Positions 1 to 27,189 of a stretch of DNA of 64,000 nucleotides are shown one piece after another. The translations under genes and the position numbers were made by a program. The DNA comes from Alphaproteobacteria bacterium. GTDB lineage: Bacteria; Pseudomonadota; Alphaproteobacteria; UBA9219; RFNS01. The stretch is from contig JBBCGY010000001.1 of NCBI GenBank assembly GCA_037200005.1, positions 42,416 to 106,415 on the forward strand, given 5' to 3'. Under the pieces are notes generated by a model that was not told the origin of the DNA, ran no database searches, and saw only the letters and a program-made list of their open reading frames with translations. Numbering within the stretch: the first letter of the stretch is position 1; each line of letters starts with the position of its first letter.

Positions 1-7
1 TCACTTA

Positions 8-41
8 ACCGCGCACCGGCCTCCGATGCGCGGTTTTTCTA
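8..41 (+). terminator. Rho-independent terminator-like hairpin (stem accgcgca/tgcgcggt followed by TTTTTCT)
   Basis: GC-rich inverted repeat at 9-35 followed directly by a T-run. It probably terminates a gene upstream of the window. Confidence 0.45.
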
Positions 42-59
42 TGCCGACTGATCGCCAAT

Positions 60-545
60 TTACGTTTTGAATGGATTATCGAAAACGAGACCGACCTTGC
101 CTGAGAGCGGCCAAATACCATGCTCAGAACCGAATCCTAATTCGAGGGAGAGTTCGCGCAAGGATTTAAAGATTAGAGAAAAGATGCTCCATATCTTACA
201 TGCGATAGAGACGACGTATTCTTTGACCCGCTCGATGAATTCGATAAGCGCATCTCTGGTTCGTCGTGCATAAGTTCTAAGAGAGGCCAACACGCTAGAG
301 GCCAAAGATTTTACATGCAGGAGAAATCGCTCGGCATGCCCTTTGGTCAATTCAACTCCTCTCGCTATTCTATCTGGCATGATGTCGCAATATTCTAGAA
401 AAGCAGAAAAAAGTTCACCTTCTTCCTTTGGAAATTCTCTAGTCGCATCGGTATCTTTGGCGATCCTTATGTCCTGTTTTAGACTCACGAGGATGGCATT
501 GACGGCTGCATCGTCAGCTTTTTCAGATAGTTCTAGAATAAGCAT
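60..545 (-). CDS. hypothetical protein (161 aa), low-GC
   Basis: Longest ORF across this AT-rich stretch. The C-terminal third is hydrophobic and no recognisable motif is present. Confidence 0.4.
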   Translation of the reverse strand: MLILELSEKADDAAVNAILVSLKQDIRIAKDTDATREFPKEEGELFSAFLEYCDIMPDRIARGVELTKGHAERFLLHVKSLASSVLASLRTYARRTRDALIEFIERVKEYVVSIACKIWSIFSLIFKSLRELSLELGFGSEHGIWPLSGKVGLVFDNPFKT

Positions 546-745
546 GGGCTTGATCCTCCCCTATAGATTGCAAAGACTAAATTAAACACATCCATTCCTT
601 AGAATCCAAGCTTCTTCATACCGAACAACTGAAACATACACCGTTATGTGTCTGACCGATAAACCGTCAGCTACTGCTGCGCAGCATTTAAACGCACCCA
701 TCTCTTCAAAACAATTTCCCCCTCACCTCATAGAAAGGAAAGCAT

Positions 746-1006
746 ATGAAAACATCCATGTCCGAAATCATTGATCTTACCCTCACGCAAGCTATTGAGC
801 GTTACATGGAGATGGAGCCGGAGGCGGTTCACGATGCCATTGTCGCCGAATGGCCGGAACAACTGGCCGTCATTCTGGTGGAGTTCTTTTTCAAAACCAC
901 ATGCGGCAATTGCGACGGCTTGCCGGATTTTATCCAAATCCCAAGAGAGCAGAGCGACATTTATTACATCGTCCCGCTATGCGGCTGCGAATGGGGCGGC
1001 GAATAG
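746..1006 (+). CDS. small Cys-containing hypothetical protein (86 aa)
   Basis: Good RBS (GAAAGGAA) 8 nt upstream of the ATG. C-terminal CxxC...CxC cluster (CGNCDG...LCGCEW) suggests a zinc ribbon. Confidence 0.5.
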   Translation: MKTSMSEIIDLTLTQAIERYMEMEPEAVHDAIVAEWPEQLAVILVEFFFKTTCGNCDGLPDFIQIPREQSDIYYIVPLCGCEWGGE

Positions 1007-1091
1007 CGTCTTAACCATACTGAGGGCGTGCGCACGACTTCGCCAAAGATTTTAAGCCCCGATTATTCCAACCATAGAAAGGAACCCTATT

Positions 1092-1772
1092 ATGAAAGCC
1101 GGAAACACCCATACCACGCGCGAAAGCTGGCTGCGGTCGGCGACGAATGAATTACGCCCGTATTTCAGCAAGCTCGGCTACGAATTGCCGGAGAAGATTC
1201 GTTTTGCCATCGCGTTCACATCAACCGGCAAGCGCGGACACATGGCCGGAGAATGCTGGCATCCGGCGTCATCGGCAGACGGGCATTATGAAATCATCAT
1301 CCGCGCGGATATTGCCGATCCCGCAGAAGTCCTTGGCATTCTTGTGCACGAACTTGTGCATACGTTGTTGCCGCCCGAAGTGAAACACGGGAAAGAATTC
1401 AGAGCCATTGCGCTGCGCATCGGCCTTGAAGGCAAAATGCGCGAAACAACGCCCACGCCGATCTTGGCGGAGCGTTTAAACGCTATCGCCATCAATCTCG
1501 GCGCATTGCCTCACGCCAAACTTAATTTTTCCGAGAACGCCGATGCTCCCAAAAAACAAAAAACCCGCTGGCTGAAAGCTGAATGCGGCGCGGCTTGCGG
1601 TTATAGCGTTCAAATCACCGCTAAATGGGCGCGCGCCGGGCTTCCCATTTGTCCAATCGATACCGATCATGGCGCATTGATTTGCAATTTGCCGGATGAT
1701 GGCAAGGACGAAGAAATAACCATGGACAACAAATCGGACATGCAAACAAGCAAAGCAATTTTGCGTTCCTAA
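1092..1772 (+). CDS. SprT-like zinc metallopeptidase domain protein (226 aa)
   Basis: HExxH motif (ILVHELVHTLL) in a SprT-like context, plus a C-terminal Cys cluster (CGAACGY...CPID...HGALIC). Same CATAGAAAGGAA RBS context as the preceding ORF. Such proteins are typical of plasmid/ICE cargo. Confidence 0.55.
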   Translation: MKAGNTHTTRESWLRSATNELRPYFSKLGYELPEKIRFAIAFTSTGKRGHMAGECWHPASSADGHYEIIIRADIADPAEVLGILVHELVHTLLPPEVKHGKEFRAIALRIGLEGKMRETTPTPILAERLNAIAINLGALPHAKLNFSENADAPKKQKTRWLKAECGAACGYSVQITAKWARAGLPICPIDTDHGALICNLPDDGKDEEITMDNKSDMQTSKAILRS

Positions 1773-1825
1773 ATAACCGACATTGAGAAATTGATTTCGT
1801 CGCAGGCTCCGCAAGGTGTGGGTCG

Positions 1826-1872
1826 TGTGACGTTGTCACACGCCACCCCCTCTGTGTGACGCGTCACACAGA
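1826..1872. promoter_or_regulatory. two adjacent palindromes sharing a TGTGAC..GTCACA core (candidate operator pair)
   Basis: gtgtgacGTTgtcacac (7-bp arms) and ctgtgtgacGCgtcacacag (perfect 20-bp palindrome), 12 bp apart, between the SprT-like gene and hsdM. Confidence 0.4.
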
Positions 1873-2221
1873 GATAGCAGGGGCTTCGCCCCATGCACCC
1901 CCATATTCATTTCAGCGAGGATATTCACATGACTATTTCGCAAAAATCACGGTTATCAACCAAGTCCTTTCTCAGCATCCGCGAGAGAAAGACGGAATGC
2001 AGTATCATTCCGTCAATATTGAGTCTCCAGTGTTGCCGACGCCGATCAATGCCGCGCTATTCCAGGACAAGGAGGATGACAGCAAGTTCAACCTCATATG
2101 GAACAGGCCGGAGCAGCAGGGACTCAAGGCCGAAGCCACCCTAAGCGTCGCGGGTCAGCCCCAATCCCGCCGCTTCTCCGGCCCGCGCGCAACGCCGTAG
2201 GTAGTAACGGAGAGGACGACA

Positions 2222-2251
2222 TCCCCGCAGGACGCTCGTCCTGCGGGGATT
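2222..2251 (+). terminator. perfect 14-bp-stem hairpin (atccccgcaggacg/cgtcctgcggggat), terminator- or operator-like
   Basis: Perfect inverted repeat about 80 bp upstream of the hsdM start, with no clear T-tract after it. Confidence 0.35.
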
Positions 2252-2331
2252 AATCGGAAAATATCGAACGAATGCCCTATGGCGCAATCCAGAGGCCGCC
2301 ATTATAATGCGCGGAAACTAAGGGATAGCAT

Positions 2332-3892
2332 ATGGCGCAAGCGAAAAAGGCAAAGAAACAGGGCGGCAATGGGGCTAATTTGGGGTTTGAAGCCCAGATG
2401 TTCCAAGCCGCCGACAAAATGCGCGGCAGCATGGATGCCAGCGAATATAAGCATGTCGCCCTGGGACTGATTTTCTTGAAATATATCTCCGACGCTTTTG
2501 AAGCCAGACATGCGACTGTCAAAGCGGACGGCGAGGACCCGGAAGACCGCGATTTTTATATCGCGGAAAATGTCTTCTGGGTTCCCAAAGAGGCCCGATG
2601 GAACCATCTACAAGCGAATGCCAAGCAACCGACCATCGGTAAATTGATTGATAATGCCATGCTGGCGATTGAGTCGGCGAATGCCTCTTTGAAGGGGGTT
2701 TTGCCAAAGGATTATGCCCGCCCAGCCCCTCAACAAACAAATGCTTGGCGAGCTGATCGACCTTATCAGCGGCATCGGGATGCATGAGGGCGCAGGCAAG
2801 AGCAAAGATATTCTTGGGCGCGTTTACGAATATTTCCTCGGTGGCTTTGCCGGAGCCGAAGGCAAGCGCGGCGGTGAATTTTATACGCCGCGTTCCGTAG
2901 TCATGCTGCTGGTTGAAATGCTGGAGCCTTATAAAGGCCGCATCTATGACCCTTGCTGCGGTTCGGGCGGCATGTTCGTTCAATCGGAGAAATTCGTGCT
3001 GGCGCATGGCGGGCGCATCGGCGACATCGCCATCTATGGCCAGGAAATGAATAACACCACATGGCGCTTGGCCAAAATGAATATGGCGGTGCGCGGCATT
3101 GACACGGATATTCGCTGGAACAATGAAGGCAGCTTCCATAAAGATGAATTCAAAGACTTGAAGGCCGATTATATCCTCGCCAATCCACCGTTCAACGTAT
3201 CGGATTGGGGAGCGGATCGCCTGCGCGAAGATGTGCGGTGGAAATACGGCTTGCCGCCTGCTGGCAATGCCAACTACGGCTGGCTACAGCATATCATCCA
3301 CCATTTAGCGCCGAATGGCGTTGCCGGCGTTGTGCTGGCCAATGGCAGCATGTCTTCCAATCAGTCCGGTGAAGGCGAAATCCGCAAGGCTATGATTGAA
3401 AAGGATTTGGTCGATTGCATGGTGGCCTTGCCAGGGCAGCTATTCTATTCAACCCAGATTCCGGCCTGCCTGTGGTTCTTGGCGCGGAACAAAAAAACAT
3501 CGCATCCGCGCAATCGCAGCGGCGAAGTCTTGTTCATTGATGCCCGGAAAATGGGTGTCATGATTGACCGCACCCGCCGTGAGTTAACGGAAGATGACGT
3601 TAAGAAGATCGGCGCTCTCTATCATGCCTGGCGCGGTGAAAAAGACGCCGGGAAATATGCCGACATTCCTGGTCTTTGCAAGGCGGCAAAGTTGGATGAA
3701 GTCTCCGGTCATGGCTTTGTCCTCACCCCTGGCCGCTATGTCGGCAGCGAAGCGGTGGAAGATGACGATGAACCGTTTGAGGTGAAATTTCCCCGACTGG
3801 TTGTTGAGTTGGAAAACCAGTTTGAAGAAAGCGATAAACTCACTGCCCAAATTCGGCGGAATCTGACTTTGTTGGGAGGGTCGCAAAAATGA
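2332..3892 (+). pseudogene. hsdM: Type I restriction-modification methyltransferase subunit HsdM, interrupted by a frameshift near 2725-2740
   Basis: The HsdM N-terminal domain is in one frame (2332-2787). The AdoMet-MTase core ([15 protein letters not shown]) continues in another frame (2714-3892). The junction reads ...LPKDYARPA / [15 protein letters not shown] within a C-rich run. Confidence 0.8.
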
Positions 3893-4380
3893 CGCTCAAC
3901 CACAAATACATCAAACAGATATTGATTTCCTTGCGGGACAATCCAGCTCCCAGCATGGACAGTTATGATCTGGCAAAAATTTGTGGCGTTGATATGAACC
4001 ATATTGATGAATTGGCGTTTGGTAAGTTTGTGACCCAACTGCGCCTGCTAAAGGATATGGCATGCATAGACTGTCCCGTGGACAATCTCGGCTTTAGCCA
4101 GAACATCAATCGCCACTGGATAATTTGTCGCACCACCTATCGGCTCTCCAGCCAGGGGCACAGTTTTCTGGACACAGAAAACAAAAATACCCTGTTCAAT
4201 AAGGGAAAGGCGTTCTTCTTTTCAGCCTTTACGGAAGCTGGAAAGCGTTTTCTGATTCAGGCAATAACGGCAATTTTTATTGTTGTGCTGGCTACCGTTG
4301 CCGCAAACGCTGGTCTTTTCAAAATTTCGAGTTCGCATGGCCTAGCTAATCTCAAAAATCCAAAAGAGCGAGGGCTATGA
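3889..4380 (+). CDS. hypothetical membrane-anchored protein (163 aa) embedded between hsdM and hsdS
   Basis: Overlaps ATGA with the hsdM stop and again with the hsdS start. It has a soluble, possibly winged-helix-like N-terminal ~100 aa and one C-terminal TM helix ([20 protein letters not shown]). GC is low. Confidence 0.55.
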
Positions 4381-5696
4381 TGTCTCTTTCGGAATGGCAA
4401 ATATTATCATTTAAAGAAGCTGGTGTTCAGTTGATTGATTGCGATCACAAAACACCCCCGGCATCTTCTTATGGGTATCCATATGTTACGATCCCTCAAA
4501 TCAAAAATGGGCGCATAGATGTGTCTGAAGCAAGGCGGATTACCGCAGAACATTTCAAAGAGTGGACAAGGAAGGCCAATCCAAAGCCCTTTGACGTTGT
4601 CTTATCTCGTAGATGCAACCCAGGAGAAACTGCCCATGTCCCTGCGGGGCTAGAGTTCGCTCTTGGACAAAATCTCGTTTTGTTGCGTGCAAATGGTGAA
4701 AAGGTATTTCCGCGATATTTACGATGGCTTACGCGGGGAGTGTTATGGTGGGAACAGATATCAAAGTTTATTAATGTGGGCGCCGTTTTCGATAGTTTGA
4801 GATGTGCGGACGTTCCAAATTTTCAATTTCCAATACCAGCACTGCATGAACAAAAAGCAATTGCTTCAATATTGACCGCACTGGACGATAAGATCGAACT
4901 GAACCGCCGGATGAATGCGAACCTGGAGGCGATGGCGCGGGCGGTGTTCAAAAGTTGGTTTGTCGATTTCGACCCCGTCCGCGCCAAAATGGCAGGCCGC
5001 CAACCCTTCGGTATGAGCGCGGCTACCGCTGCCTTGTTCCCCTCGCGCCTCGCCCCCTCCGAACTCGGCGATATTCCGGAGGGGTGGTCGGTCGATCAAA
5101 TCGGGAACGCGGTCACCGCCGTTGGCGGCAGCACCCCCAGCACCGAAAATCTAGAATATTGGACTGATGGGCAGTATGCCTGGGTAACGCCAAAAGACCT
5201 CTCTGCACTGAAATCGCCTGTTTTGTTCACAACGGAACGCAGGATAACAGATGCAGGAATCCGTGTTATCAGTTCCGGACTTCTGCCGTCGGGTACTGTT
5301 TTGATGTCTTCCCGTGCGCCAATCGGCTATATCGCAATCGCCGAAACGTCCGTTGCCATCAATCAAGGCTTCATAGCCATCGTTTGTGACAAAGAGCTTC
5401 CCAATTTATACGTCTGGCAATGGCTGCACGCCAATCTTGACATGATCAAAAGCCATGCAAACGGCTCAACCTTTCAGGAAATCAGCAAAGGCAGTTTCCG
5501 GCCTCTCCCCTGCATCATTCCATCAGCAAAGGTTCTCGAAAAATTTCAGGCAATCGTTTTGCCTATCTGGCAAAAACTCGTTGCGAATGAAAAAGAGTGT
5601 CTGGGGCTAGAAAAAACGCGCGACTACCTTCTTCCCAAACTAATCTCCGGCGACATCCGCATCCGCGACGCCGAGAAATTTATGGAGGCTGCATAA
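4377..5696 (+). CDS. hsdS: Type I restriction-modification specificity subunit HsdS (two target-recognition domains)
   Basis: Two low-GC variable domains flank a conserved high-GC central repeat (LDDKIELNRRMNANLEAMARAVFKSWFVDFDP). A similar C-terminal conserved helix follows (LPKLISGDIRI). Confidence 0.9.
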   Translation: MMSLSEWQILSFKEAGVQLIDCDHKTPPASSYGYPYVTIPQIKNGRIDVSEARRITAEHFKEWTRKANPKPFDVVLSRRCNPGETAHVPAGLEFALGQNLVLLRANGEKVFPRYLRWLTRGVLWWEQISKFINVGAVFDSLRCADVPNFQFPIPALHEQKAIASILTALDDKIELNRRMNANLEAMARAVFKSWFVDFDPVRAKMAGRQPFGMSAATAALFPSRLAPSELGDIPEGWSVDQIGNAVTAVGGSTPSTENLEYWTDGQYAWVTPKDLSALKSPVLFTTERRITDAGIRVISSGLLPSGTVLMSSRAPIGYIAIAETSVAINQGFIAIVCDKELPNLYVWQWLHANLDMIKSHANGSTFQEISKGSFRPLPCIIPSAKVLEKFQAIVLPIWQKLVANEKECLGLEKTRDYLLPKLISGDIRIRDAEKFMEAA

Positions 5697-7150
5697 TGAA
5701 TCGCTGGGTAAATTCGTTCCAGAACCATCCTTTCCAAAAGCCATGGAAAGATATTGTGGAGCTTTCAGAAAAGATTGCTCTTCAAGATGAGACTGTCGCA
5801 ACTGACGTCCAAGAGCTTGCGCGTCTAAAAAAGGTTATAACCTATGTTGGCCAGTTAATAGGTGCAGCTGATCCGGAATTGATTCCATTAAGCATATGGA
5901 GTTCTTTTCAGGACCAGGCCACGCAGTGTGCAGATCAAATCAATCAGTACAACAGCAATAAGAACATTACTCACCTCAGCAACGCTAATAGCAATCTAGA
6001 TAATTTATTGACATATGTTCGCCCTTATGTGGTTTCTGCAGAGGGGGCGGCTCAGGCGGCAATGTCTGCGTTCATAGTGTATTCCGACACCATCAATACA
6101 CAGACCGATCTGATACAATCAAAAACCCAAGCCTCTGTTAACGGTACGCAGGCGAACAAAGAAAAGTCTGATGAAATATACAAAGAAATAGAGCAGTCAA
6201 AGCACAACATTCAACAATTGGAACAAAAATTTTTGATCGGCGATAGCAATGAGAAGAGCCTCCAGGAAAGAATGCAGATTCTTCTTGGGGAAGCCCAGGA
6301 GTGGAATAAAATAATTGGTGAGTTTCACAAACGGCTGACAAGCGGCAATGAACAAGAAAGCGCAATTTCGCTACAAATCGAAGAAGCAAAAAATAAAGCT
6401 ACTAAGGATAAGGAGGCTATAGAAAGTGCCCTTCAATTATCTGAAAATTTAATCAAAGACCTCAAAGAGTTTTATGAGCGAGTTTTTGGCAAAGAAGGCA
6501 GTGACGGAAACGTCATGGTCGGTCTAAAGCAAGAATTGGATAACCGCATTAAAGAGCTTGATAATTTTAAAATTAATCAAGGAACAGCCTACAATACCTT
6601 ATTTCAAAAAATTGAATCTCTACTGCCCGGAGCAACAAGCACTGGTCTTGCCAGTGCGTATAGAGAATTAAGAGACTCTTTTGCTGCGCCCATCAATATC
6701 TATACGCTAGTGTTTTGCTTCACCCTAGCAGTGATGTTTTTTGTTGGCTTGTGGGGTGTTGACTTCGGTGATGATGTGGGATTGAACAAGATGCTCGGCA
6801 GTCTCTATCACAAACTCCCACTTTTACTGCCCATCCTGTGGCTGGCAATTTTTGCTTCCAGACGAAGAAGCGAAAGTCAAAGGTTGCAACAAGAATATGC
6901 CCATAAAGAGGCGCTCGCAAAATCATTTCAAAGCTTCAAAAAACAAATTGATGCATTGCAGGAGAAGGACGAGGTCCTTACCAAGAAACTCCTGGATGCT
7001 ATGATCGGTGCCGTGTCCCATAATGCATCACAAACACTGGATGGAAAACATGGAGATAAAATTCCAACGCAAGAACTTCTAGAGGGAGTTATCAAGAAAT
7101 TTCCTGCGCAAAGCTTTTTTGAAAAATTAGTCGATAAAATCCTTAAATAG
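5696..7150 (+). CDS. coiled-coil protein with two C-proximal TM helices (485 aa), unknown function, embedded in the RM operon
   Basis: The ATG overlaps the hsdS stop (TAATG). Long heptad-like K/E/Q-rich segments are followed by two hydrophobic helices (IYTLVFCFTLAVMFFVGLWGV; LPLLLPILWLAIFA) and a ~100-aa tail. GC is very low (~40%). Confidence 0.6.
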   Translation: MNRWVNSFQNHPFQKPWKDIVELSEKIALQDETVATDVQELARLKKVITYVGQLIGAADPELIPLSIWSSFQDQATQCADQINQYNSNKNITHLSNANSNLDNLLTYVRPYVVSAEGAAQAAMSAFIVYSDTINTQTDLIQSKTQASVNGTQANKEKSDEIYKEIEQSKHNIQQLEQKFLIGDSNEKSLQERMQILLGEAQEWNKIIGEFHKRLTSGNEQESAISLQIEEAKNKATKDKEAIESALQLSENLIKDLKEFYERVFGKEGSDGNVMVGLKQELDNRIKELDNFKINQGTAYNTLFQKIESLLPGATSTGLASAYRELRDSFAAPINIYTLVFCFTLAVMFFVGLWGVDFGDDVGLNKMLGSLYHKLPLLLPILWLAIFASRRRSESQRLQQEYAHKEALAKSFQSFKKQIDALQEKDEVLTKKLLDAMIGAVSHNASQTLDGKHGDKIPTQELLEGVIKKFPAQSFFEKLVDKILK

Positions 7151-7233
7151 GGAACAATGTGAATGGTCTGTTAGGGGCAAAAAACTCGTCACATCCAACT
7201 TATCAAGTACGTTCCTCGGAAAGAGCTACTCAC

Positions 7234-8319
7234 ATGACCTTTGACCGCAACACACCCTACAACGATCTTCCGCTTTTGCCACCGGCGCAGATCGACCTGG
7301 AAACAAAGCCTATTCTCAAAAAGGCGATCACGGCGAATATCGCGCTTGCCAAGCTGTTCGACGCGGGAAAGTTGATTCCCAATCAGGCGCTTCTGGTTCA
7401 GGCGATTGGGTTGCAGGAAGCCAAGCTGTCCAGTGAAATCGAGAATATCGTCACGACCAATGACGATCTTTACCGCGCTTTCGCGGATGAGGGCGTGCAT
7501 TCCAGCCCCGCAGCCAAAGAGGTTCTGTTTTACAAGGACGCGCTCTGGAAAGGCTATAACGCGATCAAACTGGAAAAGCGCCCGCTCTCCACGCGCCTTT
7601 TTGAAGATACGTTCCGCATTATCAAGCAATCCTCTGACGGCATCCGGCGTTTGCCGGGCACGAAATTATCGAACCCGGCAGGCGAGATTATCTACACGCC
7701 GCCCGAAGGCGAAAATCTTTTGCGTGACAAGCTCTCCAATCTCGAAAAATTTCTTTACGCCGAAGACGGGCTTGATCCTTTGATCAAAATGGCCGTCATG
7801 CACTATCAATTCGAGGCTATTCATCCCTTCACCGACGGCAATGGGCGCACGGGGCGCATTCTCAATCTTTTATATTTGATCGAGTGCGGGTTGCTGGAGA
7901 TTCCGGTTTTGTATCTATCCCGCTACATCATCGAACACAAAACGGATTATTATCTGGGACTGCGCGGCGTAACCGAGGGGCAAAATTGGGAATCGTGGAT
8001 TCTCTATATTCTCGATGCGATTGAAGTGACGGCGCAGATGACCAGAGATCGGATTCTTCGCATTCATTCTTTAATGGACAAGACGGCGGAGGCGGTCAAA
8101 GCCCAGGCTCCCAAAATCTATTCCAAAGACCTTATTGAGGTGATTTTCCGCCAACCCTACTGTAAAATTCGCTTTTTGGAGGAGGCAGGGATTGCCCAAA
8201 GGCAGACCGCCTCCACTTATCTCTCCAAATTAGAGGCTTTGGGTATTTTGGAGTCCGTAAAGGCTGGACGCGAGAAATATTATATTAATCCGGCATTCTT
8301 TAACCTTTTGGCAGAATGA
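7234..8319 (+). CDS. Fic family protein (class II with SxxxEN inhibitory helix motif), C-terminal winged HTH
   Basis: Fic active-site motif HPFTDGNGRTGR. The N-terminal helix carries SSEIEN, matching the (S/T)xxxE(G/N) auto-inhibition motif. The typical start is M-x-FDRNTPY..LPxLPP. Confidence 0.85.
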   Translation: MTFDRNTPYNDLPLLPPAQIDLETKPILKKAITANIALAKLFDAGKLIPNQALLVQAIGLQEAKLSSEIENIVTTNDDLYRAFADEGVHSSPAAKEVLFYKDALWKGYNAIKLEKRPLSTRLFEDTFRIIKQSSDGIRRLPGTKLSNPAGEIIYTPPEGENLLRDKLSNLEKFLYAEDGLDPLIKMAVMHYQFEAIHPFTDGNGRTGRILNLLYLIECGLLEIPVLYLSRYIIEHKTDYYLGLRGVTEGQNWESWILYILDAIEVTAQMTRDRILRIHSLMDKTAEAVKAQAPKIYSKDLIEVIFRQPYCKIRFLEEAGIAQRQTASTYLSKLEALGILESVKAGREKYYINPAFFNLLAE

Positions 8320-8503
8320 CATGGTTATTTTCTGCATGTTTATGAAGTGCTTAGGTGATATGTTGTTTTGATCGACACATCGTTCCAACATGTCGAAAAA
8401 ATCAGAAAATTTCGACATGTTGAGGCTTGTGCCCTTGTTGGTTCTAAAATGCGCTTAACCGAGGCCAAACAGGCAACGGCATCGCAGTCCAAAGAGAAAA
8501 TCG

Positions 8504-11500
8504 ATGGTCGCTGACATTCAATACACCCAGCCGGAACCGAATTATGACGGATTCCGCGAAGCGCATGTTGAAGAAGCAACTTTCGATTGGCTCTCTGGGC
8601 TTGGCTGGACACTCGCGCATGGGCCGGATTTGGCACCGGAAGGCAAAGCCCCGGAGCGGGCCAGTTATGGCGACGTGCTGTTGTTGGGGCGGTTGAGGAC
8701 AGCCTTGGCCGCGATCAACCCGCAACTCCCCGCCGATGCGATTGACGACGTGGTGCGTAAGATTATCGCAGTCGAAATGCCGTCTTTGGTCGAAGAAAAC
8801 CGGCGCTTGCATAAACTGATGGTCGATGGCGTGGCTGTGCAATACATGCAGGCCGACGGCACGATCAAAAACGACATCGCGTGGCTGATCGACTGGGAAA
8901 ACAAAAAGAACGATTGGCTGGCCGTCAATCAATTCACGGTCATCGAAGAACGCAACAATCGCCGCCCCGACGTGGTGATGTTTATCAACGGTTTGCCCCT
9001 TGCCGTTATTGAATTGAAGAACGCGGGAGACGAAAACGCGACAATCGAAGGCGCGTTCCGCCAGACGCAAGCTTACAAGCAATTGATCCCTTCTCTGTTT
9101 CGCACGAACGGCATACTGATTATTTCCGACGGACTGAAAGCCCGCATCGGCAGCCTGACCGCAGATTATGAGCGTTTCATGCCATGGCGCACGGTGGATG
9201 GGGCCGGTGTCGCGGCCAAAGGAACGCCCGAATTACACACAATGATTCACGGCGTTTTTGAGCAAGGGCGTTTTCTGGAGTTATTGCGCCGGTTCACCGT
9301 GTTTCAAAGCAACGGCAAAGATATTTTCAAAATCGTAGCAGGATATCACCAGTTCCACGCCGTAAAGCTCGCCGTTGCCAGCACCATCGACGCAACGGCC
9401 AGTGAAGGAAATCGCAAAGTCGGCGTCATCTGGCATACGCAAGGATCGGGCAAAAGCCTGTTGATGGCATTTTATGCGGGCAGCGTGATTGCCAATCCTG
9501 CGATGGCCAATCCGACTCTGGTTGTGCTGACCGACCGGAATGATCTGGACGACCAGCTTTTTTAACACTTTCAGCCTATCTCGTGATCTTATCCGCCAGA
9601 CGCCCGCGCAAGCGGGAGATCGCGATGAATTGCGGAAGCTTCTGGCGGTATCATCTGGCGGCGTTATCTTTACGACCATTCAAAAATTTCTGCCCGCTGA
9701 TAGTGAAAAAACTTTCCCGCTGTTGACTGACCGCAAGAATGTCATCGTCATCGCCGATGAAGCGCACCGCAGCCAATATGGCTTCAAGGCCAAGTTGGAT
9801 AAAAAGTCGGGCGAATTAGCTTATGGTTTTGCGAAACACCTGCGCGATGCGCTGCCGAATGCGTCCTTCATTGGCTTTACAGGAACGCCTATTGAGAAAG
9901 CAGATGTCAATACGCCCGCCGTATTCGGCGATTATATTGATGTCTATGATATTCAACGCGCGGTCGAAGACGGCGCGACGGTGCCAATCTATTACGAAAG
10001 CCGCCTAGCCAAACTCCAGCTTGACGAAGAGGAAGTCAAAAATCTTGATGCTGAGGTCGAAGAACTGACCGAAGACGAAGAATCCAGCGAGCGCGAGCGT
10101 AAGAAAAGCAAATGGTCGCGCGTTGAAGCCCTGTGGGAGCCGAAACACGCTTGGCTCAAGTAGCCGCCGATATTGTTCAGCATTTTGAGAACCGTATCAG
10201 CGCCTTAGACGGCAAAGGCATGACCGTATGCATGAGTCGCCGTATTTGCGTGGCGCTCTATAACGAGATTATTAAATTACGGCCCGCATGGCATTCAGAC
10301 GATGACGCGCAAGGCGCTATCAAGATTGTGATGACGGGCAATATCGCCAACGATCCGCCTGAATGGTTGAAACATACGGGCAGCAAGGCGCGCCGTGATT
10401 TCCTGGCAAAGCGGGCGCGCGACGCTAAAGACCCGCTAAAACTTGTTATCGTTCGTGATATGTGGCTTACGGGCTTTGATGCGCCCTGCATGCACACGAT
10501 GTATGTCGATAAGCCGATGCATGGTCATGGCTTGATGCAGGCCATTGCCCGTGTAAATCGCGTATTCCGCGACAAGCCAGGCGGCTTGATCGTTGATTAT
10601 ATCGGGATTGCCCATAATCTGAAACAAGCTCTCTCTATTTATTCCCCCGGCGACCGCGAAGAAGTCGGCATTGACGAGCAGCAAGCCGTCGCAGAGATGA
10701 TGCGCCGCTATGAAATCGTCCGGGATATGTTTTATGGATTCGATTATATGCGCGCGCTGCACGGCACACCGGCTGAACGCTTAGTGCTGATGGCCGAGGC
10801 TCTGGAGTGGATTCTCGATTTGCAGCAACGTGAAGCTGCAAAAGAACAGACCGAACAAGCCAGGAAAGAGGTGCGCCGCAAATTCTCAGACGCCGTTGTT
10901 GGCTTATCGCGCGCCTATGCGCTGGCCGCAACCTCGCCAGAAGCGGGGAAAATTCGTGATGAAGTCGGTTTCTTCCAGGCTATTCGTGCAGCCCTGGCAA
11001 AAAATGAGCCGGGCAAAGGTAGCACACAGGCGGAAATCGATGTGGCCGTCCAACAAATGGTCAGTCGTGCCGTGGTGTCAACGGAGATTGTCGATATTCT
11101 GGCGGCGGCAGGCATTAGAACCCCGGATATATCCATCCTCTCAGATGAATTTCTGGCAGAAATTCAAGGCATGAAGAAGCGTAACCTTGCATTGGAAGCC
11201 TTACAGAAACTCATCAATGGAGAAATAAAATCCCGCATCAAATCGAACGTGGTGCAATCTAAGAAATTCAGCGAACGACTGGAAGCCGCCGTCCGGCGCT
11301 ATCATAACAACGCTATAACTGCCGCGCAGCTTTTGGAGGAGCTGATTGCCATCGCAAAGGATATTAAAGCTGACCGCGAACGAGGAGAAGAACAAGGACT
11401 TAGCGAAGAGGAAATCGCTTTTTATGATGCTCTGGCTGAAAATGAAAGCGCATTGCAGTTGTTGGGCGATGAGAAATTACGAGTGATTGCTACTGAACTG

Positions 11501-11680
11501 GTTGTCTCCGTTCGCAATAATGTGTCTGTTGACTGGATGCACCGCGATAGCGCCCGCGCCAAGTTGCGCATCGAAGTCAAAAAGATTCTCAAGAAATATG
11601 GCTATCCGCCAGATTTACAGGATGCAGCGGTGCAACTGGTGTTGCAGCAGGCCGAAGTTTTGGCCCCACTCTGGGCATAA
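8504..11680 (+). pseudogene. hsdR: Type I restriction endonuclease subunit HsdR, split into three ORFs by two frameshifts (~9560 and ~10140)
   Basis: Three successive overlapping ORFs (8504-9565, 9540-10163, 10133-11680) together cover a ~1058-aa HsdR: N-terminal nuclease region, DEAD-box helicase motifs ([12 protein letters not shown]) and C-terminal domain. The first shift is in a T7 homopolymer (DQLFF|NTFS). Confidence 0.85.
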
Positions 11681-11772
11681 CAATCGCTGACGGCGATCTT
11701 TGGAATTCTATGTAAGAGGCTGCAACAGGTAAGGCCAGATTATGACCGAGAGGAACGAAGATTCTTAAACAA

Positions 11773-12903
11773 TCAAAGCGCCAGCCGGGGCCGGATTAGC
11801 GACAAAGGCCGGGCAGTGGAAAGCTGGAGGCCAACAGCTTCGTTTGGAACATTGGAAAAATCGGTAATAAGCGGCAGCATGGCGTTAGGGCCAAGGGCGC
11901 GTGGTGAGGCACCTAGTTCTTTAAGAGCGGAAACAATTTCCGGTTCATTTAGCGCATGAATGCGCATAAGGGGTTGCGTAGTGTCAGGAATCCATTTCCT
12001 GCGCGAGACTTCATCGCGGCCCGTCGAGATAAGTGCCGCGACCACGTCCTTGAGTTTGTCGCCTTTCGGCAGATTGCCGTTGCTGGTGATTTGAGCGCGG
12101 ACAATCGGCTCGCCCAGGAAGGTCGAAATGGCTTCCGTAAAACTGGCGGCGATTTTCTGATTGCCGTCCTCACTTTGCCAATTCGCCAGGAACACATTTG
12201 GCAAGCTGGAGTCTTTGCCGGGTTTCGCGGCGAAGTCCGCGAGCTGGATTGCAACTCGTGAGCGGCCCGTTTCAATGGGCGCATCGCCGATAAATTCCAG
12301 AACGGCGCTATCGTCCGGCGCTCCCATCGTCGCACCGAGTTTCTTGAAGATGCCGGTCATGGCCGCATTGCCGCCCGCATATTCGCCGACGCGGCCGCGC
12401 GAGACGAGGCCATAGGGCGAATAGCCTTGTTCGCGGCTGACGGATCGCCGGATTTTCTCGTAGATAAAATGCGAGCCAAGTCCAATGCCATTCGGGTATT
12501 CCGCGCTTTTTGTGCGATTACGGAATTCCTGGGATAGTTCCGGCGACACATAGGTATCTTCGCCATAGATAGCAGGATAATGGCGGAAATCCCGGCCATT
12601 GCGTTCCGTGAGAACGGTCGGAAACTCGATTGAGCCACCGGCGAGTTTGGGGCTGCAATTTTCCCACTCCACGATGGCGAAATAAGCCTGAATTTTATTT
12701 TTCTTGATGGCCTCGATAACTTTGCCGAATTTGGCGTTATCAGCGGACGCTCCATGCGTCACGGCTTCACTTTCGACGATTCTATAAAGAATCTCATCAA
12801 GCGCCATATGATGAACGACGTCCGTACCGTTCATGCGCACGATGCTGGCTTTGGCGTTTCCCGGCAGCAGACCGGGCATATTATCGAGCGCAACGGAAGA
12901 CAT
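11773..12903 (-). CDS. uncharacterized conserved protein (376 aa), paralogue of 24000-25298
   Basis: Shares HYPAIYGEDT, YPNG(I/L)GLG, GxVSxGRVxEYxG and KxGAT motifs with the 24000-25298 ORF. It overlaps the upstream XRE regulator gene by 4 bp, so the two are co-transcribed. Confidence 0.6.
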   Translation of the reverse strand: MSSVALDNMPGLLPGNAKASIVRMNGTDVVHHMALDEILYRIVESEAVTHGASADNAKFGKVIEAIKKNKIQAYFAIVEWENCSPKLAGGSIEFPTVLTERNGRDFRHYPAIYGEDTYVSPELSQEFRNRTKSAEYPNGIGLGSHFIYEKIRRSVSREQGYSPYGLVSRGRVGEYAGGNAAMTGIFKKLGATMGAPDDSAVLEFIGDAPIETGRSRVAIQLADFAAKPGKDSSLPNVFLANWQSEDGNQKIAASFTEAISTFLGEPIVRAQITSNGNLPKGDKLKDVVAALISTGRDEVSRRKWIPDTTQPLMRIHALNEPEIVSALKELGASPRALGPNAMLPLITDFSNVPNEAVGLQLSTARPLSLIRPRLAL

Positions 12904-12905
12904 GA

Positions 12906-13556
12906 TTATATTTTCCCCTTGTCGTCGGGGATCGAAGCATTTTCCCAGAATGATTCAAATTGCTCGACATATCTTTCGGCCAAGGGCTTGGAGTGTATCG
13001 AAACGACTTCGACATTATGATCGCTGCGATGCACCGCCTGGGCGATATAGTCATTATAGACGTAATAGGGAATGAGGATTTTCGTCGTCTTATCCAGCCA
13101 GCGATATTCGCAATAGCTGGCGGAGAAATTATAGTCGCCATCCAGGATAAGAACGCGGGCGTCAAGATTCGGAAGCTTGCTCATTCTTTCCATATGCTCG
13201 GTCGCATAATCTTGCGCATAGGAAAGGGTCTTGCCGTCGCTGGAATTAAACTGGCGAATGCGTCCACCGTCTTTCAGCGTTTCGTATATATGATCGAGGA
13301 ATTGTCGGTATCCGGCTTTGCCCGAAAAAACCCTGACTTGGTTTCTCCGCATCCGAACGCCCTCGTCATCCAGGAATTCGACGCCGTGCCGGTCGAAAGC
13401 ATTGGTTATGCTGGCGATGGTCTTCTCATGCGGTTGTACCGTATCGGCCTCGATTTTGCTCACGGTCACGCGGGTAAGCCCGGCCTCCCTAGCCAAGTCT
13501 TCCGCTTTCCATTCCAGTAAGCTGCGCGCTGCGCGAATTTGACGCCCGGTAATCAT
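12906..13556 (-). CDS. XRE-family HTH transcriptional regulator with ~150-aa C-terminal domain
   Basis: N-terminal HTH_XRE (IRAARSLLEWKAEDLAREAGLTRVTVSKIE). It is the first gene of a two-gene minus-strand operon. Confidence 0.7.
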   Translation of the reverse strand: MITGRQIRAARSLLEWKAEDLAREAGLTRVTVSKIEADTVQPHEKTIASITNAFDRHGVEFLDDEGVRMRRNQVRVFSGKAGYRQFLDHIYETLKDGGRIRQFNSSDGKTLSYAQDYATEHMERMSKLPNLDARVLILDGDYNFSASYCEYRWLDKTTKILIPYYVYNDYIAQAVHRSDHNVEVVSIHSKPLAERYVEQFESFWENASIPDDKGKI

Positions 13557-13827
13557 AAAGTTAGCACTAGCATATGGTTTAGTTAAAAATAGATAACAAT
13601 CGAGATAACTAAAATTGGCAATAACATATTAATATTTGTAAAAACATGCCCTGTCAATTCAGAAACATTAGTTTCATGTAAAATTTACTGATACCATAAG
13701 TATATTCTTCTTGATTCCCAGTCGGCTTTGCATTTATGTTCCCAAATATTGGTAATGCCTAATGGTTGAAATTAGCTCGATTAAGCCATTTAAAGCGATT
13801 TTCAAGGGGAATTTCAGATGACCAATT
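13557..13827. promoter_or_regulatory. AT-rich (~30% GC) divergent promoter region between the XRE operon and the rhs regulatory cassette
   Basis: A 270-bp non-coding stretch with strongly depressed GC, flanked by divergently transcribed operons. GAAGGGGA lies ahead of the first small ORF. Confidence 0.5.
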
Positions 13828-13991
13828 CATTTAACGCTTATGTCATGCGCCAGGGCGAACCGGCCATTACCGCCATCATCGAAAATTGGGAAAGGCTTGT
13901 CGGCTTGCGGGCCGAGGCCGAAACGCCGCTTGAGCAGCGCTGGGCGGCGATGATGCATGGTTATGAGCCACAGGCAATGGCAGTCGCATGA
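13828..13991 (+). CDS. small ORF (54 aa), first of four translationally coupled genes
   Basis: Not in the ORF track because it is under 60 aa. RBS AAGGGGA. Its stop overlaps the next start as ATGA. Confidence 0.35.
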
Positions 13992-14278
13992 GCCGGAAAG
14001 CCGAAAAACCTTTCAGCCCGGTTGACGAGATGCAGCTTTCTCAGCCGATGGGCAATCGAACCGCCGAACATTTCCGCGATGCCCTGGATGATTTGGAGCA
14101 TGAGGCGACCGCGCAGGACGCAAAAATAAAGCAATTGCGCCAAGCTATTCTGCAACGCGCACAAGAACTCGACACTACCGTTTGCCAATCCTGGCTGGAT
14201 TCAGAAATCGAAAAAGCGGACCACCTCGCGTTGGAAGCGCGGCTGGAAAAACTCATCAAGTTCCTATCGGAAAAATGA
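13988..14278 (+). CDS. small hypothetical protein (96 aa), helical/charged
   Basis: ATGA-coupled to both neighbours. Confidence 0.5.
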   Translation: MSRKAEKPFSPVDEMQLSQPMGNRTAEHFRDALDDLEHEATAQDAKIKQLRQAILQRAQELDTTVCQSWLDSEIEKADHLALEARLEKLIKFLSEK

Positions 14279-14493
14279 TGATGGCGAATTTTCATGAACG
14301 CCCCATGACATATAAAAAGCTCGTCGCTCGTTACGGCCATGACATGGCTTTCGATTTACTCGTCACTATCGAGAGCCTTGCGAAGATTAAGCACGACATC
14401 ATCGAGATCAACGAAGAAATTCGTCTGCAACGCGCGCTGGAAGTTTTGGACGAGGCGGAATTCGGACAGGCAGATAAAGGCGGGGTCAAATGA
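14275..14493 (+). CDS. small hypothetical protein (72 aa)
   Basis: Starts MMMANF. ATGA-coupled on both sides. Confidence 0.5.
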   Translation: MMMANFHERPMTYKKLVARYGHDMAFDLLVTIESLAKIKHDIIEINEEIRLQRALEVLDEAEFGQADKGGVK

Positions 14494-14738
14494 TTTCCGG
14501 TAATAACATACCCAATAAAAAGCTTGCGCCGCGTGAAATCGAAGTCATGACCTTAACGGCGCGTGGCAAGACGACCACCGAAATTGCAATGCTTCTCTCG
14601 ATTGCCGAGGATACAGTTAAGACTCACATCAAACGATCCTGCCAGAAATTGAACGCGGCCAATAAAACACACGCCGTTGCTCTCGTTATGGCTCGCGGCA
14701 TAATAGAATGTTCCTGTTGTCACCCGAAAGGGGGATAG
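14490..14738 (+). CDS. stand-alone LuxR/GerE-type HTH transcriptional regulator (82 aa)
   Basis: LuxR-type HTH signature (LAPREIEVMTLTARGKTTTEIAMLLSIAEDTVKTHIKRSCQKL). It lies directly upstream of rhs. Confidence 0.7.
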   Translation: MISGNNIPNKKLAPREIEVMTLTARGKTTTEIAMLLSIAEDTVKTHIKRSCQKLNAANKTHAVALVMARGIIECSCCHPKGG

Positions 14739-14820
14739 AACTGCATTTTTATTTGCGCTACATAGTTGCGGCGCATTGGCGATGAAGTTAGAGTAAATTT
14801 TCGCGAAGGGGAGAACGGCG

Positions 14821-20202: not shown

Positions 20203-20207
20203 TCCTA

Positions 20208-21478
20208 TGAAAAAGTTTACTCTATTGCTTGTCGCGCTTTGTAGTCTGACAATGTTACCGGCTCATGCCGCTGACCAAGACTCCAAACCACCCGTCATTG
20301 ATATTCCTGCCACGCGAAAAGAGGCGGAGTCTGGAGATGCTCGGGCTCAATATAATCTGGGCATAGCTTATCTCAACGGTTACGGGGTGAAGAAAAATAA
20401 AGATGAAGCTATTGAATGGATTTACAAAGCAGGGAAGAACAATGATGCCCTCGCAATATATTTCTTGGGCAGCGCATATCATGATGGCGACCTTTTGCCA
20501 CAAGACTACGCCAAGGCTATGAAGTGGTATCACAGGTCCGATGAATTATACGGCAGTCCCCTTGCGCAGAATATGCTTGGCGTGATGCACGAAAACGGTC
20601 AGGGGGCTCCACAGAATTATGAAGAAGCGGCTAGGTGGTATCGCAAAGCTGCCGAGAATATTTACGCACCGGCTCAATCCCATCTTGGATTCCTATACTA
20701 CGCTGGACGCGGCGTTCCTAAGGACGATCAAAAGGCTCTATATTGGCTTAAGAAAGCAGCCATACAAAACGATGCGCCAGCAAAGCTTATGCTAGGCATT
20801 ATGCACTATAAAGGCGAAGGAGTGGAAAAGAATTACGTTAAAGCTGTCAGCTATTTTCGCGAAGCCGCAGACGTCGGAATATCGATAGCTGAACGATATT
20901 TGGGAAATATGTATTACCACGGCGAAGGCGTTTCCAAGGATGAAGCCCAGGCTGTGTCTTGGTGGCGCAAAGCCGCCGAACAAGGGGATAGGGAGTCGGA
21001 AAAGATCATAGGTGGTATGTACTATTATGGCACAGGAGTGTCGAAGGATTTTTCCCAAGCCGTTTTATGGTGGCAAAAAGCTGCGGAAAAGGGTGATGTC
21101 GATGCTCAATGCAACTTGGCGAAAGCTTACTATCATGGAGAAGGTATAGGAAAAGATGAAACTCAAGCTGTGTTATGGTGGCGGAGGGCCGCGGCACAAG
21201 GACATGGAGAATCCCTCCTTTATTTAGGACAAGCGTATTTTAGTAGCATAGGCGTATCGCAAGATGATGTGCAGGCTTATATATGGCTAAGCTTGGCGGC
21301 TACAAGAAATCAGTCGTCAGCGGTTGCAACACTCACGGAACTCGAAAAGTCCATGACGCCGGAACAAATCGCTGAAGCCAGAAAACGCGTGGCAGAATGG
21401 AAACCCAAGCCTGAGCCAAAGCCTGCCCCAATAGGGCCAATACCCGAAATTCTAAAAGAAGTCCGTGAAGATTTATGA
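20208..21478 (+). CDS. Sel1-repeat protein with signal peptide (candidate periplasmic immunity protein for Rhs-CT1)
   Basis: Signal peptide MKKFTLLLVALCSLTMLPAHA. At least 9 Sel1 repeats (AQYNLGIAYLNGYGVKKNKDEAIEWIYKAG...). Sits immediately downstream of the rhs toxin tip. GC ~45% versus ~62% for the rhs body. Confidence 0.8.
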
Positions 21479-22668: not shown

Positions 22669-22700
22669 AGAATATGAGTGGAATTGAGGGAGTTAATGCA

Positions 22701-23489: not shown

Positions 23490-23513
23490 CGTCTAATTTC
23501 AAGGCAAGAAGCG

Positions 23514-23882: not shown

Positions 23883-23999
23883 ATCATCTTCCAGCAAGCT
23901 GGGTAGCGCACTGACTTTGGCGATGAAACTAAATTGATTGATTGCCCCATGCTGGCATTAAATTGTATATTCTGAGGTACATTTTAGGGCGGCATATTT

Positions 24000-25298: not shown

Positions 25299-25526
25299 CC
25301 ACCTCTTGATCTAAATTCCAACAATAGATCGACTTTCCGCGAGGGCGCGGAAAGCGGTTCCCGCCGCCGTTCTGCCGCGTAAAGAACGCGGCGCGGTGGC
25401 TCGCTACGCGCTGCGCCGACAAGAGCGGCTTACGCTTTCGCGCCCCCAAGCGGGCGCATTTGCTTACCGGCATGAGTGAGCGCGGCCAGCACCACTCTCT
25501 ATTTCCAACCGCCTTTTTCTAACCCC

Positions 25527-25553: not shown

Positions 25554-25584
25554 TTTCAACCACAGCATAACAAGGGAGGAAGAT

Positions 25585-25776
25585 ATGAGCCAGGAAGCAT
25601 ATCGCGTGAAAGAATTCTGCAACCGCTACGCCATTTCAAAAGCCAGCTTCTACCGGGAAACAGCGGCGAAGCGGCTGCATATCCTAAAACGTGGCCGTAC
25701 AACGCTCGTTGCCCGCACCGAAGCCGAACGCTGGTTTGAAAGCCTTGGCCAAGGCCAGCCGCAGCAATCAGCCTGA
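25585..25776 (+). CDS. AlpA/Xis-like phage-type transcriptional regulator (63 aa)
   Basis: RBS AAGGGAGGAAG. AlpA-like HTH (FCNRYAISKASFYRETAAKRLHILKRGRTTLVARTEAERW). Immediately upstream of the integrase. Confidence 0.7.
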   Translation: MSQEAYRVKEFCNRYAISKASFYRETAAKRLHILKRGRTTLVARTEAERWFESLGQGQPQQSA

Positions 25777-25843
25777 TCGCATTCAATATCCCGAATATTT
25801 CCAAAGCCATTTTTCGTCAATCTTATTCTCATGGAGGCATGTC

Positions 25844-27031
25844 ATGCGCCATACGGGACATATTCGCCAGCGTTCAGAAGGGAGTTTCGAGCTTCGCTAT
25901 AGCATCGGCACCGATCCGGTCACGGGAAAATGGAAAGTCAAAACCGTCACCGTTAAGGGAACGCGCAAAGCTGCCGAGAAAGAATTGCGCCGCATACTCG
26001 ATGCAATCGATGACAATGATTATGTCGAACCCAATAAAATCACTACCCGTGATTTTTTGACACAATGGCTTGAAACAATGCGTTCCCAGATAACCCCCAA
26101 ATCCTATGAAAGCTACGCTGAAATAGTCGATAACTTCCTTATCCCAACTCTTGGCGGTCATATTCTGGCGAAACTTGCTCCGGCTGTTATCCAAAAAGCC
26201 TACAATGGATGGGAAGCTGGTGGCCGCAGGGATAAAAAGGCGGGCGGGCTGGCGGCGCGTTCCCGTCTCTATATCCACCGCATCCTTAAATCGGCACTCA
26301 AACATGCCGTGCAAATACAGCTAATCGCCCGCAATCCCGCCGACGCGGTTAAAGCGCCGCGCGTCAAGAAAGCCGCCATAACTACATTGACCGTGGATCA
26401 ATCGGCGGCGCTGCTCGATGCCCTGTCCGGCAAGCCGCTTTATTGGCCTGTGTTGCTTGCCCTAACAACGGGCATGCGCCGGGGTGAAATTCTGGCGCTT
26501 CGCTGGAAGAATATCGACTTTGAAAAGAAAACTGTTCGCGTCGTCGAAAGTCTAGAGCAAACCAACACAGGCATTCGCTTCAAGGCTCCGAAAACGGAAC
26601 GGAGTCGTGCCGTCATGTTGCCGGATTATGCCGTTGAAGAACTGCGGAGACTGAAAAAAGAACAGGAGAAAAAATTGTCGGAATCAGGAATCGGCCAAAC
26701 CACTGAAACGCTGGTTTGCGGTCGCTATGACGGCGAACCGCTATGGCCTACCTCACTTACGCATGAATTCGTGAAGGCCATGAAGAAACTGCCGAAACTG
26801 CCGCGCGCCAGATTCCATGATTTGCGCCATTCCCATGCCACGCAACTCCTGACAGCAGGAATCCATCCCAAAATCGCGCAAGAACGGCTGGGACATACCA
26901 CGATTACGACAACCCTAGACCTCTATTCCCATGCGACGGACACCATGCAAGACGAGGCTGCATCAAAGCTCGACAATGCCTTCCGTTCTGCTATAAAGGC
27001 CCGTTCCGACCAAGCGCCACGACTAGGATAA
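25844..27031 (+). CDS. tyrosine-type site-specific recombinase/integrase (phage integrase family)
   Basis: Catalytic region RFHDLRHSHATQLLTAGIHPKIAQERLGHTTITTTLDLYSH (R...HxxR...Y). The most likely start is MRHTGHIRQRSEG rather than the extended ORF from 25691. Confidence 0.9.
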   Translation: MRHTGHIRQRSEGSFELRYSIGTDPVTGKWKVKTVTVKGTRKAAEKELRRILDAIDDNDYVEPNKITTRDFLTQWLETMRSQITPKSYESYAEIVDNFLIPTLGGHILAKLAPAVIQKAYNGWEAGGRRDKKAGGLAARSRLYIHRILKSALKHAVQIQLIARNPADAVKAPRVKKAAITTLTVDQSAALLDALSGKPLYWPVLLALTTGMRRGEILALRWKNIDFEKKTVRVVESLEQTNTGIRFKAPKTERSRAVMLPDYAVEELRRLKKEQEKKLSESGIGQTTETLVCGRYDGEPLWPTSLTHEFVKAMKKLPKLPRARFHDLRHSHATQLLTAGIHPKIAQERLGHTTITTTLDLYSHATDTMQDEAASKLDNAFRSAIKARSDQAPRLG

Positions 27032-27111: not shown

Positions 27112-27187
27112 GACCTTGTAGCTCAGCCGGTAGAGCATCTGACTTTTAATCAGGGGGTCGCGGGTTCGAACCCCGCCGAGGTCACCA
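27112..27187 (+). tRNA. tRNA-Lys (anticodon UUU) with encoded CCA
   Basis: Cloverleaf: acceptor gaccttg/cgaggtc; D-arm gctc-agccggta-gagc; anticodon arm tctga-cTTTTaa-tcagg; T-arm gcggg-ttcgaac-cccgc; discriminator a; CCA. Confidence 0.9.
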
Positions 27188-27189
27188 GC

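Follow-up and report, generated by a model that had tools for sequence, protein, structure and literature searches.

Between positions 2332 and 11680, the forward strand of a 64,000-nucleotide stretch of alphaproteobacterial DNA (contig JBBCGY010000001.1, positions 42,416 to 106,415; hereafter the window) carries a string of co-oriented genes that open reading frames (ORFs) and Pfam, PADLOC and NCBIfam profiles resolve into a Type I restriction-modification (R-M) operon with three nested non-R-M genes. Their order is hsdM, a gene for a DUF2513-like protein with a predicted transmembrane anchor, hsdS, a gene for a 484-amino-acid (aa) membrane protein, a SoFic-type gene and hsdR, and the locus is in this respect another instance of a known architecture, the Type I R-M operon with nested genes. 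An initial annotation had taken it for a decaying operon in which three frameshifts surround an intact cargo. The ORF splits are present in the window, where hsdM falls into two frames and hsdR into three, but both hsdR frameshifts are absent from another assembly of the same reads. What stands of the decay is a single reproducible lesion in hsdM, and the rest probably consists of two assembly errors. The operon is made up as follows.

2332..2787, + strand: N-terminal fragment of hsdM, 151 aa, the last 14 aa out of frame (Pfam HsdM_N, 1.4e-25; PADLOC MTase_I, profile positions 4-126)
2714..3892, + strand: C-terminal fragment of hsdM, 392 aa, with the N6_Mtase catalytic domain (Pfam N6_Mtase, 3.3e-108; PADLOC MTase_I, 123-500)
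3889..4380, + strand: nested gene 1, putative 163-aa divergent DUF2513-like protein (sub-threshold match to Pfam DUF2513)
4377..5696, + strand: hsdS, full length, two target-recognition domains (PADLOC Specificity_I, 1.9e-119, profile positions 25-455 of 458; Pfam Methylase_S in two stretches)
5696..7150, + strand: nested gene 2, 484-aa protein, helical throughout, with a membrane hairpin towards the C terminus (unmatched in Pfam and PADLOC)
7234..8319, + strand: nested gene 3, SoFic-type Fic protein, 361 aa (PADLOC SoFic, 2.4e-115, profile positions 11-359 of 361)
8504..9565, 9540..10163 and 10133..11680, + strand: hsdR in three frames (whole gene 8504..11680; PADLOC REase_I)

The two halves of hsdM take up consecutive positions of one MTase_I profile, and the three hsdR fragments cover positions 5-336, 335-520 and 526-1022 of the REase_I profile in succession; the breaks are therefore one-base indels and not rearrangements. 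Although an added C interrupts its ORF, HsdM retains the HsdM_N domain and the N6-adenine methyltransferase domain of a Type I modification subunit, with the catalytic motifs DPCCGSGG and NPPF intact in the C-terminal fragment. HsdR likewise displays Type I architecture, with HSDR_N, SWI2_SNF2/ResIII, T1R_D3-like and T1RH-like_C domains in Pfam. That hsdS and the three embedded genes are full length, as initially claimed, is borne out by their ORFs and profile matches, with the small correction that the coiled-coil protein encoded after hsdS has 484 residues and not 485. Ten other overlapping same-strand ORF pairs occur in the window, each with distinct Pfam families and full profile coverage, so that split genes are uncommon there.

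Where, then, do the frameshifts come from? A GenBank protein with 100% identity to the 484-aa protein is encoded on contig JBBCBH010010965.1 (1.83 Mb), part of a hifiasm-meta co-assembly of four pooled PacBio HiFi runs (SRR28211698-701) from deadwood metagenomes, the assembly description of which mentions no polishing step (PMC11613949). A second assembly of these reads is available as Logan de Bruijn-graph contigs from HiFi run SRR28211700, one of the four co-assembled read sets; Logan drops k-mers that occur once per accession (PMC12424806). The assemblies were compared over the Logan-matched stretches of the window, 34,320 bp in all. One Logan contig (L002, 13,726 bp) reproduces window positions 1-13375 without a mismatch and differs there by just two indels, both at the hsdR frameshifts, and three further contigs of the same run are 100% identical to positions 22228-27138, 27141-38062 and 38047-43174. 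The comparison as a whole yields no substitutions and two indels, which lie 570 bp apart within hsdR. The three frameshift sites are these.

2726..2729, + strand: hsdM frameshift, a run of four C (C4) where intact orthologues have three (C3), a gain of one C (alignment to the closest intact orthologous locus; homologues)
9558..9563, + strand: hsdR indel 1, T6 in the window and T5 in L002 (assembly discrepancy)
10131..10133, + strand: hsdR indel 2, one T missing in the window, CCCTGTG against CCCTTGTG in L002 (assembly discrepancy)

The hsdR sites differ from their first description, in which the former was a run of seven T at about 9560 and the latter a second homopolymer at about 10140. The run has six T, and the second site is a T missing at about 10132, with no homopolymer (window GCCCTGTGGG, Logan GCCCTTGTGGG). 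Restoring the L002 bases at each indel brings the frame back, and in L002 itself hsdR is a single uninterrupted ORF of 1058 aa (contig positions 8855-12031) in which the PD-(D/E)xK motif (as D156..E170xK), GSGKS and DEAH are all intact. The frameshifted 353-aa HsdR fragment is recorded solely in the GenBank co-assembly; the in-frame alleles are supported at least twice in the reads, since k-mers seen once are discarded by Logan. HiFi assemblies retain some errors, for the most part indels that fall in homopolymers or tandem repeats, and these can produce false frameshifts (PMC12212083). Because indels unaccompanied by substitutions fit this residual error mode, and because the frameshifts are absent from the Logan assembly, those of hsdR are, with good confidence, assembly artefacts. 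Their 570-bp spacing suggests one poorly corrected stretch of reads, and they are probably uncorrected HiFi indel errors passed into the unpolished co-assembly from a region of low coverage. The initial annotation had argued against sequencing error from the intact state of long ORFs elsewhere; these are indeed intact, but the argument misleads here, where errors are few (2 in 34 kb) and yet both fall in hsdR.

Positions 13376-22227 (the RHS region and its flanks) and 43175-64000 have no Logan match, L002 ending at 13375, and searches with the window proteins encoded at 29347-31860, 21475-22668 and 55271-56713 returned only the GenBank contig, with no Logan contig of SRR28211700 for the last two. 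The gap at 13376-22227 may reflect repeats or lower coverage.

The hsdM frameshift behaves differently. It had been placed in a C-rich run near 2730, and the C4 at 2726-2729 is reproduced in both assemblies, with no difference between L002 and the window at this site; the GenBank co-assembly and Logan both have the truncated HsdM fragment of 151 aa on record. A comparison with orthologous loci, which the initial annotation had proposed as a check, locates the lesion. The closest intact orthologous locus (L009) lies in a Danish soil alphaproteobacterial metagenome-assembled genome (JBAVWC010000136.1), and its hsdM (5541-7094) aligns to that of the window, at 79% nucleotide and 87% amino-acid identity, with one 1-base gap (CCAGCCCCTC against CCATCTC-TC); at this site the orthologue reads CCATCTCTC, without a C-run. 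Homologues with 90% identity read ARPALNKQML over the junction, and deleting one C from the window gives the same sequence. Among the 120 best-scoring HsdM homologues (73-90% identity) nearly all are single chains of ~511-530 aa, the exceptions being a few longer proteins (to 622 aa) or truncated fragments. No intact hsdM allele of the same strain was found in a collection of 5.8 billion proteins, where the best match is 90% identical and the members of the two top clusters were checked. As the C4 allele is present in Logan, from which single k-mers are discarded, it is backed at least twice in the reads. Because it occurs in both assemblies, and because a C3 run is an unlikely site for recurrent HiFi error, the hsdM frameshift can be taken with good confidence to be real.

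Restriction by a Type I enzyme requires two HsdR, two HsdM and one HsdS (PMC11411939). With HsdM required for methylation (M2S complex) as well as restriction (R2M2S complex), the system is predicted to be r- m-, a viable state, and it has most likely been switched off recently: apart from this one base hsdM is undamaged, catalytic motifs included, which argues for a young lesion. The +1 C insertion (C3 to C4) would then be the sole genuine lesion of the operon, knocking out methylation and restriction together, and hsdS, hsdR and the nested genes would remain intact since little time has elapsed after the loss of hsdM. Two ways in which the broken gene could still yield a working protein were considered. 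Programmed +1 ribosomal frameshifting at the C-run was rejected, as the 0-frame codons CCA GCC CCT CAA give no cognate +1 re-pairing. Nor does it seem likely that the two halves work as a split HsdM, the second translated from the ATG at 2714: an AAGGA lies just 2 nt upstream of this ATG, and nearly all of the listed homologues are single chains.

As a whole, the explanation that we favour, an R-M operon recently disabled through hsdM, with erroneous indels in hsdR and a cargo independent of the enzyme, is likely, and several points weigh against it. Both discrepancies lie in one gene, for which a uniform error model gives p ~0.009, and the same model gives p ~0.03 for two indels within 570 bp, although this apparent clustering is inflated because the region was chosen for study on account of its frameshifts. 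The read sets behind the two assemblies overlap, so that HiFi sequencing might have erred repeatedly at the hsdM C-run, and the loss of R-M activity is a prediction from the hsdM frameshift. Could all three frameshifts be real, and the operon be decaying after all, in different sub-populations? The hsdM lesion would have come first and become fixed, and a sub-lineage would then have been hit twice in hsdR. Such a history would accord with further lesions in an hsdR left without selection by a broken hsdM, with the clustering of both discrepancies within 570 bp of hsdR rather than over 34 kb, and with a co-assembly that pools four samples and might thread the dominant haplotype of another one. 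However, a diverged lineage with two indels and not one single-nucleotide polymorphism in 34,320 bp is implausible, HiFi errors being mostly indels, and SRR28211700 is the only Logan run with a record of the identical cargo protein or of the truncated fragments, so that the population seems to have been assembled from essentially one sample. We regard the sub-population history as rather unlikely.

The opposite possibility, that all three frameshifts are artefacts and the Type I system is intact and active, draws on the fact that two of the three are already non-reproducible, on an hsdM that is undamaged apart from the one base, and on the HiFi chemistry behind both assemblies, which could make a systematic error common to them. 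It is quite improbable: C4 appears in hifiasm-meta and in a Logan graph that needs each k-mer at least twice, the large protein collection holds no intact allele, its best match being 90% identical, and C3 is too short for a typical systematic HiFi error, for which the literature implicates long homopolymers (PMC12212083). A further proposal of the initial annotation was that the homopolymer shifts are switchable; as contingency loci, the indels would toggle restriction through slipped-strand mispairing. In Haemophilus, Neisseria and Helicobacter, some hsd genes do vary in phase, and the frameshifts of the window resemble those of such host-adapted pathogens in lying in short runs within hsdM and hsdR, the first hsdR run even differing in length (T5/T6) between two assemblies of the same community, a pattern that fits HiFi error. 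Contingency tracts, however, usually have at least 7-8 bases if homopolymeric, or else multiple longer repeat units, and those of the window (C4, T5/T6 and T1/T2) are far too short to be switchable; hsdR indel 2 has no repeat tract at all, the C-run is not conserved in the L009 orthologue, two of the three differences are not reproducible, and the 227 homopolymer runs of at least 5 bases in the window make these sites nothing special. A phase switch is hardly credible here.

Under the favoured explanation of one real lesion in hsdM, the locus carries a caution: two of three seemingly pseudogenizing frameshifts in a defence operon trace to an unpolished HiFi metagenome co-assembly, and such false frameshifts can be detected without raw reads, by comparing the contig with a public assembly made independently from the same run. 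What is left is ordinary biology: a Type I R-M operon with cargo, sited on a mobile island and intact except for an hsdM that broke recently.

What is the cargo? The third nested gene, most likely starting at 7234, encodes a Fic protein with the SoFic architecture (Fic_N, Fic and SoFic-like_C in Pfam). Its catalytic motif, HPFTDGNGRTGR at residue 197, conforms to HxFx(D/E)GNGRxxR, and an inhibitory-helix motif, SSEIEN, conforms to [ST]xxxE[GN]. With an NCBIfam score of 484.3 bits, below the equivalog cutoff of 550, the protein is, as judged from its profile matches, a member of the SoFic family rather than a strict orthologue. The first nested gene, which overlaps the hsdM stop codon with its start (ATGA), encodes the 163-aa protein, scored at 19.7 bits against DUF2513 (PF10711), where the gathering cutoff is 29.6. 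Of its aligned relatives, 19 of 23 do match PF10711 (best E-value 1.1e-11), and hydropathy adds a C-terminal hydrophobic anchor at about residues 120-148; on these grounds it is assigned as a divergent DUF2513 member with a predicted membrane anchor. A set of 1.84 billion proteins contains 32 representatives of its family, which is thus very small.

The second nested gene has a start codon that runs into the hsdS stop (TAATG). Its product is one of a family that is well conserved but has no name, with at least 947 matches of ~480-500 aa. The protein has no match in Pfam or PADLOC. Its AlphaFold (AF2) model is all-helical, with a mean confidence score (pLDDT) of 69 and ~85 for residues 1-210; Foldseek against PDB gave nothing with an E-value below 0.07, and the fold searches returned only generic helical bundles. 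In an alignment of the family (A1) the membrane hairpin is followed by an invariant SKRRSE..RLQQEYAHKE motif. The window copy lacks 9 residues at ~350-360, in the first transmembrane segment or loop, that are present in 21 of 21 aligned homologues (A1 columns 359-367), and its hairpin may be shortened.

The genomic context of the 484-aa gene was surveyed by tblastn in one genome per species, 80 loci in total. In about 15 of these, from Alpha-, Beta-, Gamma- and Epsilonproteobacteria, the order is hsdM, hsdS, the 484-aa gene, zero to three variable genes and hsdR, and the start of the 484-aa gene usually abuts or overlaps the hsdS stop. The variable slots of these related operons hold RhuM, a RhuM-Fic fusion, a KAP NTPase, Abi_2, an HTH-M78 peptidase, a DUF4268/PD-(D/E)xK protein, PDC-S42 and PDC-S50. 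In the other ~65 loci the gene is on its own, in surroundings that vary and share no conserved neighbour, and no hsd gene is detectable beside it. These stand-alone copies sit in mobile or defence islands, their sampled neighbours including TIR proteins, an SMC-like ATPase, integrases, a transposase, a WYL regulator, PD-T7-3, PDC-S66 and PDC-M04A. The family is thus widespread and well delimited, recurring between hsdS and hsdR and elsewhere near known or candidate defence genes (PD-T7-3, TIR, PDC-S50), which makes it a reasonable candidate for a guilt-by-embedding catalogue of defence genes and the sole real lead at this locus. It is a tentative idea, and a doubtful one, that the family consists of so far undescribed effectors that act as single genes in anti-phage defence or abortive infection and that, where they sit in the slot known from PrrC, could provide a backup that fires once the R-M complex has been disabled. 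If so, the protein might disrupt membranes by way of its conserved C-terminal hairpin and the motif that follows, and with hsdM lost it would be the component of the window locus that is still of consequence.

How did these genes come together? Neither SoFic nor the 163-aa gene ever accompanies the 484-aa gene in the other surveyed loci. As the three are not companions elsewhere, they appear to be independent acquisitions and not a module, which fits the lower GC content of the first two (45.1% for the 163-aa gene and 41.5% for the 484-aa gene, against 52-54% for hsdM and hsdR). They were probably gained independently as accessory cassettes, in slots where this R-M family often holds nested genes. 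They are probably defence genes, and SoFic, possibly the 484-aa protein too, would act independently of the R-M enzyme. At the orthologous Danish locus, positions 11437-13000 contain two copies of the hsdR 5' end (residues ~13-55) flanking an inserted 376-aa PDC-S50 gene, with a KAP-NTPase-like gene after it. This arrangement points to recombination at the 5' end of hsdR as the way in for cargo cassettes, with duplicated stubs as its trace. No such stubs were found in the window. A search of positions 1800-12000 for direct and inverted repeats gave only short, chance-level matches and no cassette-flanking repeats, promoter and terminator scans of the same interval did no better than shuffled sequence, and megablast of positions 2000-12000 against all complete E. 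coli genomes gave no match.

The operon would belong to an uncultured deadwood alphaproteobacterium and be carried on a tRNA-Lys-associated genomic island, of which the following pair appears to mark the right end.

25691..27031, + strand: tyrosine integrase (Pfam Phage_integrase)
27112..27187, + strand: tRNA-Lys(ttt) (ARAGORN)

Because the integrase adjoins tRNA-Lys, the R-M locus, the RHS toxin and several helix-turn-helix (HTH) genes are placed on this island. Left of the integrase, along with the R-M locus, lie the RHS toxin gene (14821-20202) and three downstream ORFs (one with Sel1 repeats), a DUF736 gene and the HTH genes. A search of the window and of 4.3 kb of upstream sequence for att-like repeats of the tRNA-Lys region, at least 14 nt long, found none. 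Directly after hsdR, at 11773-13556 on the - strand, comes a convergent pair made up of a 376-aa ORF, unmatched in Pfam and PADLOC and not related to the gene of equal length at the Danish locus, and a gene for a 216-aa HTH_3 protein with weak resemblance to R-M control proteins and RmrA N-termini. Farther along the window, at 43800-62100 on the - strand, a type IVb thin-pilus gene cluster lies beside parts of a Dot/Icm-type type IV secretion system (T4SS), in a cluster that looks like an IncI-like conjugation module or an integrative and conjugative element. Housekeeping genes (pepN, rsmB, pcnB) separate it from the R-M island.

46025-46693, - strand: PilS-like pilus gene
47993-49354, - strand: T2SSF pilus gene
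49081-51009, - strand: T2SSE pilus gene; the pilus genes further include, on the same strand, a secretin, TcpQ and a PilO-like gene
57514-58743, - strand: T2SSE-like ATPase of the T4SS
58722-59618, - strand: TraI
59551-60270, - strand: DotD; IcmT is also among the T4SS parts on this strand

A Type I R-M operon with genes nested in it is not the unusual state for a defence locus that the initial annotation had supposed: such nesting is common and has been described, thousands of genes having been found inside BREX, DISARM and Type I R-M systems (Payne, Hughes, Fineran and Jackson 2024; 10.1101/2024.01.29.577857), and TgvAB, inside the Type I R-M system of Vibrio cholerae VPI-2, is a tested example of nested defence genes (PMC11411939). 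The window operon agrees with that pattern in having its accessory genes between hsd genes and in the same orientation, in a cargo that varies among related loci, and in the presence of one recognized defence gene, SoFic. It departs from the pattern in that its DUF2513-like and 484-aa proteins match no PADLOC v2 model, the PDC candidates of that study included, and in that the host hsdM is frameshifted. SoFic itself is listed as a single-gene defence system (PADLOC PDLC03963; NCBIfam NF046030, protein adenylyltransferase SoFic), which the window protein matches over the full profile and in both motifs; it falls below the NCBIfam cutoff, and its anti-phage role is a prediction from sequence.

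The closest parallel to the 484-aa gene in position is the anticodon nuclease PrrC, encoded at the EcoprrI locus in the order hsdM-hsdS-prrC-hsdR. The 484-aa gene takes the same slot, right after hsdS and before hsdR with an overlapping start, and does so recurrently, in the ~15 loci from different proteobacterial classes. Unlike PrrC, which is almost exclusively embedded in Type I R-M systems (10.1101/2024.01.29.577857), it is not obligately linked to R-M, some 65 of 80 homologues having no detectable hsd neighbour. Nor does its product show sequence or fold similarity to PrrC or RloC in Pfam, PADLOC or fold searches, being a helical membrane protein with no recognizable enzymatic domain. The 484-aa protein may act as a stand-alone or R-M-associated effector, yet not as a member of the PrrC family.

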